35,655 bases of DNA from an uncultured Candidatus Saccharibacteria bacterium (lineage in GTDB: Bacteria; Patescibacteriota; Minisyncoccia; RBG-13-40-8-A; JAUWHN01). The translations under genes and the position numbers were made by a program. Of this stretch, positions 3,310-13,861 are shown piece by piece. Every line of letters starts with the position of its first letter. Positions within the stretch are counted from its first letter, which is position 1. Location of the stretch: positions 1 through 35,655 of the forward strand of contig CAYRSI010000002.1 of the NCBI GenBank assembly GCA_964426965.1. The letters run 5' to 3'. The notes under the pieces were generated by a model. That model was not told the origin of the DNA. It made no database searches and was given only the letters and a program-made list of their open reading frames with translations.

Positions 3310-4404
3310 CTACTTATTTCTCACAACAATACTCTGAATAATGCCTAAGGCAATAAAGCTCATGACCATACTACTGCCGCCGTAGCTGACAAAAGGCAAG
3401 GGAATCCCTACAATCGGCAATAATCCCATATTCATCCCTATATTAATAACAGCCTGAAAAAGAAACATGGTTGCTAAACCAGCAGAAAATAATCTGGCGA
3501 AATTATTAGGTGAAATCAAAGATATTTTAATTAATCTGTAAAGCAAGATTCCAAAAAGAACTAAAATAAAAAATGAGCCCAGAAAACCTAATTCTTCGGC
3601 AATAGTAGCAAAAATAAAATCAGTGTGTTGTTCGGGCAAAAAATGAAGTTGCGATTGAGTGCCATGACCTAAGCCCCGTCCAAAAAACTTTCCTGACCCA
3701 ATAGCAATAGTTGACTGAATAATATGATAGCCTTGACCCAGGGGATCTGAACCAGGATTTAAAAAAGATGTAATTCTTTCTTTCTGATAGTCCTGCAGCA
3801 AAAAGAACCAGCTAACAGAAAAGATAACTAAACCAATAAGAGCCAGGAGAACTAAATGCCTAATCCTTATTCCGGCAATAATAACCATGGCCAACCAGAC
3901 AAGAATTATAATCAAGACATAGCCTAATTCTGGCTGTAATAAAATTAGAACTAAAGGAAAAATAATATAAAGACCAGAAATAATCAAATGGCGCAAGCGG
4001 TAAACTTCAACATGACGCAAAGAAAAATATTTTGCCAAAACCAAAATAATAACTAATTTCATTAACTCAACCGGCTCAAATCCTAACTGACCTATTCGAA
4101 ACCAGCTGGAAACGCCCCTTATTTCTTTGCCCACCAGAAGAACGCCTGCTAAAAGCAAAAAACCAAAAAAATAAAGCCCTAAAAGAAAAAAACCATTATC
4201 CCTAAGAATACGATAATCAACTAAAACAAGTATAAGCATTAAAAAAACTCCCAAAGCAATATAAATTAACTGCCTTTGAAAAATTTTTGAATCCCCTTCT
4301 TGACCAATGCCAAAAATAGATAAAAGCCCCACCGTTACTAGCAGCAGGACTGTTATCAGTAATACCCAGTCTAATTTTCTAATCTGATTAAAACGTAAAA
4401 GCAC
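3310..4404 (-). CDS. SEDS-family peptidoglycan glycosyltransferase (FtsW/RodA/SpoVE)
   Basis: 364 aa and polytopic. Carries the family motifs ...LPEQHTDFIFATIAEELGF... and ...PLPFVSYGGSS.... Confidence 0.9.
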   Translation of the reverse strand: MLLRFNQIRKLDWVLLITVLLLVTVGLLSIFGIGQEGDSKIFQRQLIYIALGVFLMLILVLVDYRILRDNGFFLLGLYFFGFLLLAGVLLVGKEIRGVSSWFRIGQLGFEPVELMKLVIILVLAKYFSLRHVEVYRLRHLIISGLYIIFPLVLILLQPELGYVLIIILVWLAMVIIAGIRIRHLVLLALIGLVIFSVSWFFLLQDYQKERITSFLNPGSDPLGQGYHIIQSTIAIGSGKFFGRGLGHGTQSQLHFLPEQHTDFIFATIAEELGFLGSFFILVLFGILLYRLIKISLISPNNFARLFSAGLATMFLFQAVINIGMNMGLLPIVGIPLPFVSYGGSSMVMSFIALGIIQSIVVRNK

Positions 4405-5241: not shown

Positions 5242-5934
5242 TCACTTCCATCCTTTCTTTTTTATTGCTGCTTTAGCAGCTTTTTCCTGGGCTACTTGCT
5301 TGCTAGGGCCTTCTCCTTTGGCTATCATCTTCTCTCCCAAAAAAACTCCAACTATAAACTGCTTGGCATGGTCGGGTCCGCTCTCTCCTAAAACTTCGTA
5401 ACTTGGGGTAACTCCTGCTTTATCCTGGGCCTTTTCCTGAAAACGACTCTTAGGATCATGATACAATTTTCTCTCTAAAATTACTGGCAACTCTTTAATC
5501 AAATGCTTAATGATAAATTCATTGGCTTTTTCAAATCCTTGATCTAAATAAATAGCCCCTATCACTGCCTCAAAAGTATTGGCTAAAATAAATTGGCGAG
5601 CCCTGCCAGTATCATGAGACTCGCCCTTAGAAAGCAAAAGATGGTCATTAAACTTTAAACGATTAGCTGTATTAGCCAACATTTTACTATTAACCAGAGC
5701 AGCCCTCCAAATCGTCAACTCGCCTTCTGGGTTGGGATAATTCCCATACAAATGTTTGGTTACCACCAACTCTAAAACTGCATCCCCTAAAAACTCCATA
5801 CGTTCATTGTCATCAAGTTTGTACTTAGGATGCTCATTAAGATAAGACCTATGAACAAAAGCCTGCTGGAGCAAGTCTTTGTTCTTAAACGTGATACCTA
5901 AACTTTTTTCTAGTTTATTAAGATTTTTTGTCAT
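5242..5934 (-). CDS. rnc: Ribonuclease III
   Basis: Contains the [15 protein letters not shown] signature plus a C-terminal dsRBD (...GPDHAKQF...[17 protein letters not shown]). I prefer the start at [10 protein letters not shown] (5934). The track ORF extends to 6003 across the GC palindrome. Confidence 0.9.
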
Positions 5935-6433
5935 TTGATTTCCTGCCTGCCGGCAGGCAGGTGTTTTTGGGCCTTTCATCTTCTTTTGACTTTCCTGTCT
6001 CATCTTTCCCCGGCTCTCCTATCTCCCGATAGATTGTTCCCAATACCCCATTAATAAACTTTCCAGAAGACTCACCGCCATAAGTTTTAGCTAACTCAAT
6101 TGCTTCATTAATGGCTACTTTTGGCGGCACTTCTTTACGGTCACCAAAGAGAAGTTCATAAAGTCCAATTCGTAAAACATTCCTGTCAACAATAGTAATT
6201 TGCTCTAATGGCCATTCTGGCGCTGCCTTTTCAATAATCTTATCAATTTTAGGCTGAAACTTCATTACGCTCTTAGCTAAACTATGAATAAAATCAACAT
6301 CCTCAGCATCCGGAGTTAATGCCTCGATGTTTCTTCCAATGACTTTCTTAAGCTCATCTGATTTCCTCTTTCTAAAATCCCATTCATAAAGGGATTGTAA
6401 TACAATTGAACGAGCTAAATGACGAGATGCCAT
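5918..6433 (-). CDS. nusB: Transcription antitermination factor NusB with a C-terminal tail that reads through a GC palindrome
   Basis: [20 protein letters not shown]...[15 protein letters not shown]...[26 protein letters not shown]. It overlaps the rnc start by 17 nt. Confidence 0.88.
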
Positions 6434-6456: not shown

Positions 6457-6750
6457 TTATTTTTTGGACAGTTCTTCAGCGCTAAGTGGTTTTTTAGCTT
6501 GTTTTTCAACTTTCTCTTCTTCTTTTTTCGCCATTTCTTTTTCTTTTTTCTTTCTTTCTTTTTTAGTTAACTTTGCTAAGACATCAATTACTTCCCTTCC
6601 TTTGTAAGTTCCGCAAAAAGGACAAAAATGATGCGGCAAAATTGGCTCTTTGCATTTTGGACAAAGAGAAAGAGCTACCTTCTTCAAGGCATGATGAGAT
6701 CGACGCTTATTTCTCCGAGATTTAGTATGTCGTTTTTTCGGTACAGCCAT
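6457..6750 (-). CDS. rpmF: 50S ribosomal protein L32 with a ~40-aa K/E-rich C-terminal extension
   Basis: [24 protein letters not shown]...CPKC...CPFCG zinc ribbon. Start taken at the internal ATG (6750), not the track start at 6798. Confidence 0.9.
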
Positions 6751-6764
6751 AAAAATAACCCTAA

Positions 6765-6789
6765 GTCCGACCCGGATCGGGTCTAGGAC
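6765..6789 (-). other. GC-rich hairpin in the rpmF leader (GTCC-GACCCG-GAT-CGGGTC-TA-GGAC)
   Basis: Inverted repeat read directly, 15 nt upstream of the rpmF ATG. A related hairpin lies at 7896-7920. Confidence 0.6.
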
Positions 6790-6819
6790 AATTAACAATT
6801 AACAATTAACAATTAACAA
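6788..6819. repeat. 7-bp microsatellite, (ACAATTA) x4 plus a partial unit
   Basis: Direct reading: acaattaacaattaacaattaacaattaacaaa. Confidence 0.9.
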
Positions 6820-11899: not shown

Positions 11900-13861
11900 T
11901 TTCTCGGCTTCTCGGTAATTACTTACCCAATGAATTCTTTTGTCACGCTTAAACCAAGTCATTTGGCGTTTTGCATAATGTTCAATTTCTTTTTGAAGTT
12001 TTTCAACCATTTCTTGTTTGGTTATTTTTCCTTGAAGATACTTAGCAATATAACGATACTCTAATCCAAAATCATCCAACCTTTTCCACGACAAGCCTCC
12101 GCCAGCTGGCGGATTTTTTAACTTTTTAACTTCAGCAATCATGCCTTTCTTAAGACGATGTAGCAATCGTTTTTTTATTAAGACTTTTAACTTTTGATTC
12201 GATTTTTTTATACCGACTATTAAAACATCCCGGCCTACGGCCTGCCTGCCGGCAGGACAGGATGGTCCGCCCGCTTCGCCGCGAGGCGAGCCGTAGACGG
12301 AAAATTGAAGAGGGGGCACTGGTTTGCCAGATTTAATAACTATCTCCAAGGCCCGGATTAAACGCCGCCTATTTTTGGAATCAATATTTTTAGCTCGACG
12401 GGGGTCGAGTTTTTTTAATTTTTTAAACAAAGCTTCGGTGGTTTCTTTTTCTAAATTTTTTCTTAGCCTTAAATCAGGTTTTACTCTTGGAATAATTAAT
12501 CCTTCAACAACTGCCTGAATATAAAATCCGGTTCCACCACAAAGAATTGGAACTTTTCCTTTTTTGTAAATTCTATTAATTGTCTGAAGTGCTTTTCTTT
12601 GATATTGAGCAACTGTAAATCTCCTCTTTGGATTAGCTGCATCTAAAAGATAATGCGGAATCCCCTGCATCTCTTTTTTAGTAATTTTGCCGGTCCCAAT
12701 ATCCATACCCTTATAAACCTGTCTCGAATCAGCAGAAATAATTTCTCCGTTAAACTTTTTAGCAAGCTTAACAGCTAAATCAGATTTTCCTGAAGCAGTT
12801 GGTCCCAAGACTACTATTAATTTCTCTTTCTTTTTAAGAATATCGTCTAATATCTTCCAACGGCGCTTCTTTTCATTCCATGATATACTATCTTTAAATT
12901 TAACAGCAGCTGTTCCCGACCTCGGAGAGTATTTATTAATATATGCTATATCATAATTAACTTGTTTAAATATCTTTACTGTGTTTTGAAATTGCTTTTT
13001 TGTTTCTCCTGGAAAACCAACAATAACGTCTGTAGATAACTTAACATTAGGAATCTTTTTTCTGATTTTATTAACCAAACTTAAATATTGTTTAACCGTA
13101 TATTTTCTGTTCATTTTCTTTAAAATCTCATCGTCCCCGCTTTGAATAGGCAAATGTATTTCCTTGACGACTTTTTCGCATTTGGCAATTGTATCAATTA
13201 ATTCATTAGACATATCCTTTGGGTGATTAGTTAAAAAATGAATTTTAAAATTGCCAGGAAGTTTATTAATTTTATTAAGCAAGTCAACAAAACCATATTC
13301 GCCCGCCTTACCGCAAGACAGGTAAGAATTAACATTTTGTCCTATTAGGGTTATTTTTTTATAACCATTTTTAATTAAGTTTTTTATTTCATCTATTATT
13401 TCTTGGACTGGCCTTGAAACTTCCCTTCCCCGAGTATAAGGAACTACGCAATAAGTACAAAAATTATCACAGCCAGTCATTATAGGAACAAAAGCTGAAA
13501 ATTTATTAATACATTTAGGTTTCAAAGATAGGTAATTTTTTCCCAGAAATTTTTCAATATCCAATACTTCGTCAAAAAACTTTCTGAACTTTATTCTATC
13601 AGACTTTAAAATACAGCCAGTTAATATTTTTTTAGCTTTCAGGCGAGCAAATTTTTGTTTCAGCCCGAAAATCCTATCTATTGCAGTTTGCCGAACCGAA
13701 CAAGCATTAACAACAATCAAATCAGCCTTCGCTAAAGCTTTGGCGGACGAGTCAGCCCCTTTTACGGGCTTATATCCTTTATTTTCCAAAACAGCTGCAA
13801 TCCGCTCACTATCAGAATAATTCATCTGACAACCAAAAGTTTTTATAAAATATGTTTTCAT
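11858..13861 (-). CDS. Fusion protein: radical-SAM methylthiotransferase MiaB (no TRAM domain) plus tRNA dimethylallyltransferase MiaA
   Basis: N-terminal half: MKTYFIKTFGCQMNYSDSE and CDNFCTYCVVPYTRGRE. C-terminal half: LIVVLGPTASGKSDLA...ISADSRQVYKGMDIGTGK...QRKALQ. It is one uninterrupted frame. Start chosen at 13861 (the track ORF begins at 13933, inside a terminator hairpin). Confidence 0.88.
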   Translation of the reverse strand: MKTYFIKTFGCQMNYSDSERIAAVLENKGYKPVKGADSSAKALAKADLIVVNACSVRQTAIDRIFGLKQKFARLKAKKILTGCILKSDRIKFRKFFDEVLDIEKFLGKNYLSLKPKCINKFSAFVPIMTGCDNFCTYCVVPYTRGREVSRPVQEIIDEIKNLIKNGYKKITLIGQNVNSYLSCGKAGEYGFVDLLNKINKLPGNFKIHFLTNHPKDMSNELIDTIAKCEKVVKEIHLPIQSGDDEILKKMNRKYTVKQYLSLVNKIRKKIPNVKLSTDVIVGFPGETKKQFQNTVKIFKQVNYDIAYINKYSPRSGTAAVKFKDSISWNEKKRRWKILDDILKKKEKLIVVLGPTASGKSDLAVKLAKKFNGEIISADSRQVYKGMDIGTGKITKKEMQGIPHYLLDAANPKRRFTVAQYQRKALQTINRIYKKGKVPILCGGTGFYIQAVVEGLIIPRVKPDLRLRKNLEKETTEALFKKLKKLDPRRAKNIDSKNRRRLIRALEIVIKSGKPVPPLQFSVYGSPRGEAGGPSCPAGRQAVGRDVLIVGIKKSNQKLKVLIKKRLLHRLKKGMIAEVKKLKNPPAGGGLSWKRLDDFGLEYRYIAKYLQGKITKQEMVEKLQKEIEHYAKRQMTWFKRDKRIHWVSNYREAEKLVFEFFSFLFKFI
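12231..12300. repeat. GC-rich composite palindromic element inside the miaA half
   Basis: CTACGGC-CTGCCTGCCGGCAGG...CGCCCGCTTCGCCGCGAGGCGAGCC-GTAG. It shares modules with 5942-5961 and 24178-24218. Confidence 0.85.

Follow-up and report, generated by a model that had tools for sequence, protein, structure and literature searches.

The perfect 20-nt palindrome located in the final codons of nusB, a few nucleotides ahead of rnc, is very likely a recent, frame-preserving copy of a GC-rich repeat family with units of about 20–22 nt, tolerated in the C-terminal tail of NusB and not selected as a regulator. The stretch of DNA analysed here (35,655 nt, hereafter the window) belongs to G000, a 929-kb, 35% GC genome of a CPR/Patescibacteria (Paceibacteria-type) bacterium. 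A preliminary description of this DNA pictured a hairpin remodelling two gene ends and regulating RNase III; that claim fails and the locus is mostly ordinary. The nusB copy is an ultra-small repeat whose insertion is cleanly dated by an empty site between flanks that are 96–98% identical; a regulatory role for the nusB/rnc copy is possible but unsupported.

The genes concerned are arranged in the order rpmF–nusB–rnc, followed downstream by a 270-aa ORF and then by ftsW, and nusB is found next to rnc in 177 of 189 related loci. The elements of the locus are as follows.

6798..6457, minus strand: rpmF (L32), likely true start ATG 6750, with an L32p Pfam match and a Lys/Glu-rich tail.
6433..5918, minus strand: nusB, an ORF of 171 aa with PF01029 at residues 7–136.
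6025–5921, minus strand: Lys/Glu-rich tail of NusB, aa 137–171 (~35 aa), also present in relatives.
5942..5962, minus strand: net in-frame 21-nt insertion (ACC TGC CTG CCG GCA GGC AGG) defined by alignment with relatives, its boundaries uncertain by 1–3 nt.
5942..5961, no strand assigned: perfect palindrome CCTGCCTGCCGGCAGGCAGG, as RNA an 8-bp stem with a CCGG loop.
5918..5934, minus strand: 17-nt nusB/rnc overlap, ATGACAAAAAATCTTAA, ancestral and common to palindrome-free relatives.
5934..5242, minus strand: rnc (RNase III), 230 aa, start ATG 5934, with PF14622, PF00636 and dsrm domains.
5935..6003, minus strand: open extension of the rnc frame in the ORF list (23 codons, ATG 6003), not conserved, with a TAA in L311.
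5942..5971, plus strand: antisense hairpin followed by TGTTTTTGGG, terminator-like by prediction and probably incidental.

NusB proteins of this class nearly always run beyond the fold into a Lys/Glu-rich tail. In the window, nusB reads the palindrome as (T)CLPAGR (NusB residues 158–164), outside the NusB fold, since PF01029 stops at residue 136. The nusB stop codon (5920–5918) lies 17 nt into rnc, whose start at ATG 5934 is supported by alignments to all 40 relatives, each opening within query residues 1–11. In many Paceibacteria (L010, L026–L028, L030 and others) a Nudix domain (PF00293) is joined to the NusB C-terminus, giving proteins of ~290–305 aa, and the short Lys/Glu tail of the window aligns with the linker of these NusB–Nudix fusions. 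A shortened palindrome, CCTGCCTGCGCAGGCAGG, is also seen at L272:1560–1577, in the N-terminal coding part of the nusB of another lineage, just past the conserved ...EWDF motif.

The geometry given in the preliminary description, a perfect 20-bp palindrome at 5942–5961 placed 8 nt before the rnc ATG, is correct: 8 nt separate the palindrome end from the A of ATG 5934, with 7 nt in between. The isolated hairpin has a predicted fold energy of −13.9 to −15.0 kcal/mol, with a stem of 8 bp (at most 10) and a 4-nt loop, and the flanks contribute no extra pairing. As the source MAG is fragmented (120 contigs) and some of its contigs end in family copies, the palindrome might be regarded as an assembly or sequencing artefact, or else as a chance palindrome; either is hardly conceivable. 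Positions 5853–6212 are covered, with 0–2 differences, by independent contigs (X1, X4, X5) from several marine-sediment metagenome runs belonging to two studies, and a palindrome seen in independently assembled contigs is not an assembly artefact of this MAG. Moreover, the reading frame is kept, the exact sequence is found at four other loci of the genome and in cultured isolates of other phyla, and matches to CCTGCCTGCCGGCAGGCAGG with up to 3 mismatches number 0 in 100 dinucleotide-preserving shuffles of the window. No joint lacking the 21 nt (the empty-site allele) was found in the contigs of four runs, contigs being known to drop rare variants.

Relatives carry the empty form of the site. 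Searches with NusB of metagenome and genome contigs gave a best identity of 78%, and closer relatives were retrieved from a protein index; no empty site was found in a same-species genome, the closest being a mosaic relative, L311, whose NusB (P0002) is 87% identical overall. Over 6109–5817, L311 is 96–98% identical to the window and lacks exactly 21 nt, apart from a few adjacent substitutions. At the junction, the window reads CCCAAAAAC[ACCTGCCTGCCGGCAGGCAGG]AAATCAAATG and L311 reads CCCAAAATA--AAATCAAATG. P0002 ends ...GKDETGKPKKDKKPKIKSNDKKS and has 164 residues versus 171 in the window, the shortfall being precisely the seven residues that the palindrome encodes; its tail is otherwise identical, save for the codon adjoining the seven inserted ones. 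The same seven residues are missing, with the same ending, in L321, L322, L323, G002 and about 15 further NusB homologues, and the proteins P0003, P0004, P0008, P0014 and P0018 as well as the NusB of G002 end in ...K(S/T/L)NDKK(S/P)* without the insert. The nusB/rnc overlap measures 17 nt in the palindrome-free G002, L311, L321 and L322, and 20 nt in L323.

These alignments show that the palindrome arrived after the nusB stop, the tail and the 17-nt overlap were in place. The preliminary description had proposed comparing nusB stop positions and nusB–rnc spacing among related genomes, holding that the palindrome had created the NusB tail, moved the nusB stop and made the overlap. None of the three survives the comparison, in which relatives without the palindrome share both tail and overlap, the very result that the description had named as refuting its view: the ~35-aa tail is present in them, only seven residues (21 nt) having been added in the window; L311, L321, L322 and G002 have the same ending; and the overlap is identical. 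A further claim, that the palindrome opens an upstream extension of rnc, stands in part. In L311, the rnc frame is closed by a TAA that precedes the ATG by two codons; in the window this stop is gone at the insertion point, leaving the frame open to ATG 6003. Use of the 23-codon extension is nevertheless unlikely, because G002 likewise lacks a stop before the rnc ATG and all Rnc homologues start at the aligned Met; judged by sequence comparison, the extension is probably not translated as part of RNase III.

With empty sites in relatives, L311 included, parsimony favours an insertion, and the absence of exactly 21 nt between flanks that are 96–98% identical points to a recent and frame-preserving one. 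The codon beside it is AAC in the window, ACA in L321 and L322, ATA in L311 and GCA in L323; as this adjacent codon differs, a single 21-nt insertion does not by itself convert the inferred ancestral sequence into that of the window. Either a 21-nt unit (A plus palindrome) entered beside a variable codon or, with an equally good fit, the 20-nt palindrome entered together with one extra A in the adjacent A-run, which restored the frame. The seven extra residues in the disordered NusB tail are probably neutral. The converse history, in which the palindrome is ancestral here and was precisely lost (21 nt) in the relatives, would draw on the deletion-prone nature of palindromes and on mosaic recombination around the junction in relatives; it is very improbable, however, as at least six independent empty lineages, outgroups included, share an uninterrupted ...PK(T/I/A)K(S/L)ND..., the copy is still a perfect palindrome with no sign of decay, and its flanks remain nearly identical to those of the empty L311. 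The mosaicism itself is apparent in the identity profiles over 6583–5700. The sister contig (L312/L320) is 100% identical to the window over 6583–6230 (3' end of rpmF and 5' half of nusB) and then 70–85% identical through the junction, whereas L311 displays the opposite pattern, with 52–58% at 6523–6410 and 96–98% at 6109–5817. These reversed patterns indicate that segments have been exchanged by recombination among related populations, with breakpoints near gene junctions.

The inserted unit is a member of a multi-copy family. The exact 20-mer occurs five times in the 929-kb genome, and family copies number 24, 32 and 40 at up to 2, 3 and 4 errors, respectively, versus 0 for the reversed control; the commonest form is the 21-nt CCTGCCTGCCGGCAAGGCAGG. 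The genome contains 193 GC-rich islands, and the palindrome family is one of several GC-rich hairpin families. Two further copies lie in the window.

12241..12261, no strand assigned: second copy, part of a composite element in miaA, absent from sister contig L320.
24178..24219, no strand assigned: third copy, in pheT, a 21-nt variant with a nested 21-nt unit, CGCTTCGCAGCGAGGCGAGCC, at its exact centre.

The preliminary description had called the palindrome a mobile-looking hairpin related to the pheT element, and this is borne out: both belong to the same repeat family, which is multi-copy, and the site is empty in relatives. Its equation of the palindrome with the joined outer arms of the pheT element is accurate to within one base, the pheT arms CCTGCCTGCC and GGCAAGGCAGG giving the 21-nt variant. 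Stop codons are missing from all six frames of the family unit, which yields LPAGRQ, PACRQAG or CLPAGR according to frame. In G000, ORFs of at least 120 aa contain 84–88% of the copies, the same share as for random 20-mers (84%).

Some copies sit at particular positions within genes. At C5:5532–5552 of G000, outside the window, a CATG-variant of the palindrome spells out a full type IV prepilin-like leader, MPAGRQG|FTLIELL; the same CATG-variant leader is found at G002:C36:11394–11413 (L324) and G008:C1:9817–9836 (L325), that is, in three different pilin-like genes of three genera. Since the variant encodes the whole leader, start codon, basic residue and the Gly at −1 all come from the repeat, and these copies may reflect its domestication or else hint at where it originated. 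In a holB-like gene (DNA polymerase III delta'), G000 carries, also outside the window, two perfect copies (C112:1169–1188 and 1287–1306), the first of which interrupts a Walker-A-like motif (GP-DLPAGRQ-GRSGKKT); removal of 21 nt would restore GPGRSGKKT.

The family extends well beyond this genome. Searched with at most one mismatch, it turns up in 18 of 41 same-class relatives (control 0), and the exact 20-mer occurs in at least 110 contigs assigned to Patescibacteria, Omnitrophota, Bacteroidota, Planctomycetes, Gamma- and Deltaproteobacteria, Thermodesulfovibrio and others, including the cultured Bacteroidota Winogradskyella, Flagellimonas and Longitalea. By our own arithmetic, chance would account for ~0.5–9 exact 20-mers in the 596 Gb concerned. 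Among the matches listed, median local GC at the exact-20-mer loci is 43%, and 45 of 116 cross-phylum copies fall within ORFs of 120 aa or more, a location more extragenic than in G000; with so few of them in long ORFs, the coding bias of G000 reflects gene density and is not a property of the element.

Comparison with sister contig L320 (17 kb syntenic, ~90% nucleotide identity), which is without the nusB copy, reveals further turnover. The composite element of miaA (window 12231–12300; +60 nt in the window) is missing from L320 and is therefore a recent gain or loss too. Conversely, gatB of L320 harbors two family copies (3503–3545 and 3744–3761; +36 and +18 nt), with none in the gatB of the window (~10749 and ~10544). 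The net gain of only 18 nt at the second of these suggests that the end of the element overlaps the target by microhomology (CCT/TCT); one of the gatB copies is accompanied by a TTGAC-type short repeat module. All four differences between the window and L320 are multiples of 3, and as gains and losses run both ways, the turnover is recent. The nusB insertion and the three nearby gains or losses relative to the sister genome show that 20–22-nt GC-rich palindromes remain active in present-day CPR bacteria and that no event survives unless it keeps the frame; such filled and empty pairs are also the raw material for working out the copying mechanism of the family.

By analogy with REP/RAYT, the most plausible candidate mechanism of mobilisation is a hairpin-recognising enzyme acting in trans. 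Y1_Tnp is matched seven times in G000, in six cases above the Pfam cut-off, by RAYT-like Y1/HUH proteins of 222–250 aa that bear an HUH motif (MPNHxHLL) and a YxHxNP tyrosine motif.

C12:14783-15451, C1:45841-46536, C6:6597-7310, C11:7414-8166, C5:19987-20703, C8:16432-17118 and C45:4591-4869: RAYT-like genes, six full-length and one truncated.

These 6–7 RAYT-like Y1 (HUH) paralogues, which would act in trans on DNA hairpins, are the best candidates in the genome for a mobiliser. Similar multi-copy RAYT-like sets occur in some relatives (G012, G021, G032). No family copy was found within 400 nt of any of the seven Y1_Tnp genes of G000, and among the cross-phylum matches listed a RAYT-like gene is near 1 of 111 loci. 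Across 41 genomes, Y1_Tnp and palindrome counts correlate weakly (Spearman rho 0.28, p 0.08; Fisher p 0.52), and five genomes possess the repeat with no Y1_Tnp match. A DUF559 (PF04480) nuclease was considered as mobiliser and rejected, G000 having no PF04480 match.

The position of the nusB copy raises the question as to whether it affects rnc. The preliminary description rightly placed it in the translation-initiation region of that gene: the hairpin spans −27..−8, with an AGGA at −11..−8 in its 3' arm, AGGA being taken here as a generic Shine–Dalgarno motif since the MAG yielded no 16S 3' end with an anti-Shine–Dalgarno sequence to compare. Opening −20..+13 around the rnc ATG is predicted to cost 14.2 kcal/mol in the window, compared with 2.4 kcal/mol in L311 and 3.3 kcal/mol once the 21 nt are deleted from the window sequence in silico; the hairpin raises the predicted opening cost of the initiation region by ~11 kcal/mol. 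A stable hairpin over a start region should suppress independent initiation, leaving translation to coupling. On these folding predictions, an influence on rnc translation may be considered one plausible side effect of the insertion.

Whether the hairpin is in addition a selected regulatory element of rnc, by sequestering the initiation region (coupling or attenuation) or as an rncO-like target for RNase III autoregulation, is a matter on which its position at −27..−8, the added ~11 kcal/mol and the AGGA in its 3' arm speak in favor, as do independent copies located 17–18 nt upstream of the rnc ATG, in the nusB–rnc spacer, in two other Paceibacteria lineages (L196 and L252). Nine family matches are present in 189 nusB loci (604 kb), and three of these (window, L196, L252) fall within 30 nt upstream of the rnc ATG, that is, in 0.9% of the sequence; under a uniform model, the Poisson P is 8e-5 for all three and 0.002 without the window. 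Under a model in which only spacers and tails are permissive (~12% of the sequence, an assumed figure), however, P rises to 0.03, and to 0.12 with the window left out. The L196 and L252 copies hint at something beyond neutral tolerance, not significant under the permissive-sites model. We take the clustering near rnc to mean that a compact operon offers few spots where an insertion can survive, and treat it only as a lead. L012 and L014, from two other genera, carry a family palindrome in frame within the tail of rpmF, just ahead of nusB. Selection for regulation is unlikely overall, since the hairpin is absent from L311, L312/L320, L321–L323 and G002, all the nearest relatives, and is thus not conserved; nusB-translating ribosomes must unwind it anyway; and a scan of the junction against Rfam 15 gave no match at gathering score, only RsaOG at 22.6 bits versus 50 (E = 0.57). 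Three metatranscriptomes from a related study contained no contig of this organism on the operon. As for autoregulation, which the preliminary description had put forward, an ideal RNase III substrate measures ~22 bp, about two helical turns (PMC3867540), and E. coli rncO is a long irregular 5'-UTR hairpin cleaved by RNase III (Matsunaga et al. 1996, via PMC3867540). With its 8-bp stem and no added pairing from the flanks, and being absent from the nearest relatives, the monomeric hairpin is unlikely to serve in this way.

Two other readings of the hairpin carry still less weight. The unit is self-complementary, so two carrier transcripts could pair as a perfect 20-bp duplex of about the size preferred by RNase III; the position upstream of rnc might then be no accident, tying RNase III synthesis to the load of palindrome RNA in the cell and rendering rnc translation strictly dependent on that of nusB. 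This is a long shot; if it were true, the L196 and L252 insertions 17–18 nt upstream of rnc would reflect selection for such a feedback. It is exceedingly improbable that the hairpin terminates antisense transcription, for which the plus strand offers a hairpin followed by TGTTTTTG, listed as terminator-like: within the operon no plus-strand gene lies upstream, the T-run is a mere complement of the Lys/Asn codons of the tail, and the hairpin is missing in relatives. A sense-strand intrinsic terminator was likewise rejected, as on the minus strand the hairpin is followed by AAAUCAAAUG and the T-run exists on the antisense strand only.

The preferred reading of the nusB copy as a recent, tolerated insertion can be summarized in terms of mechanism. 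A family copy entered the lineage of the window recently, adding a net 21 nt and keeping the frame. It came to lie in the C-terminal tail of NusB, which is disordered and rich in Lys/Glu, 8 nt before the overlapping start of rnc; the floppy tail and the kept frame make the site tolerant, and this tolerance would explain its persistence. From its position at −27..−8, the hairpin should hinder free 30S initiation on rnc. Translation of rnc would then rely more strictly on nusB-translating ribosomes, which would melt the hairpin and terminate 14 nt beyond the rnc ATG, a configuration suited to termination–reinitiation coupling. The nusB/rnc junction is in this respect a natural test case of how a stable hairpin within overlapping genes acts on translational coupling.

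In the literature, searches by the sequence CCTGCCTGCCGGCAGGCAGG and by the peptides LPAGRQ and PACRQAG found no paper, and a search for in-frame palindromes in CPR bacteria found nothing specific. Several known systems nonetheless invite comparison. REPs lie mostly outside genes, are species-specific and imperfect, and as a rule border the RAYT gene that belongs to them. The present family resembles REP/REPIN in consisting of short GC-rich palindromes that form DNA hairpins, in a genome with 6–7 RAYT-like proteins; unlike them, it has ~85% of its G000 copies inside genes and does not border the RAYT-like genes. Membership of the REP/REPIN–RAYT system was rejected on these two counts, the repeat-flanked RAYT and, in G000, the mainly extragenic location. 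Small dispersed repeats (SDRs) are reported from cyanobacteria in 'Very small mobile repeated elements in cyanobacterial genomes' (Elhai et al. 2008, Genome Res 18:1484). They reportedly share with the family a length of ~21–27 nt, a palindromic and nested organization, coding as well as non-coding locations and the lack of a known transposase; the sequences differ, however, the hosts here are CPR bacteria and many other phyla instead of cyanobacteria, the unit here fits the reading frame in length, and its copies lie in coding sequence as often as random 20-mers do. With E. coli rncO, the nusB copy has in common a hairpin directly upstream of the rnc coding sequence, but its 8-bp stem lies within the coding sequence of the upstream gene, is not conserved and is well below ~22 bp.

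The Rickettsia palindromic elements (RPEs) offer a further comparison. RPEs are ~100–150 bp long, fall into ten Rickettsia-specific families, RPE-1 to RPE-10 (Ogata et al. 2000/2002, via PMC10969869), and each encode a conserved peptide in one frame (PMC10969869). Like RPEs, the present repeats are dispersed hairpins inserted in frame in unrelated and often essential genes and translated in tolerant parts of proteins (PMC10969869). Unlike RPEs, the family unit is only 20–22 nt, is open in six frames, nests in other units and recurs letter for letter across many phyla; assignment to the RPEs proper was rejected on account of this unit length, compared with 100–150 bp, and of the CPR-type host. 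The palindrome family is not a member of the RPEs, the cyanobacterial SDRs or the REP/RAYT system as these are defined. It does display RPE-like behaviour, being a multi-copy hairpin repeat with in-frame gene insertions for which empty sites exist, in nusB, miaA and gatB.
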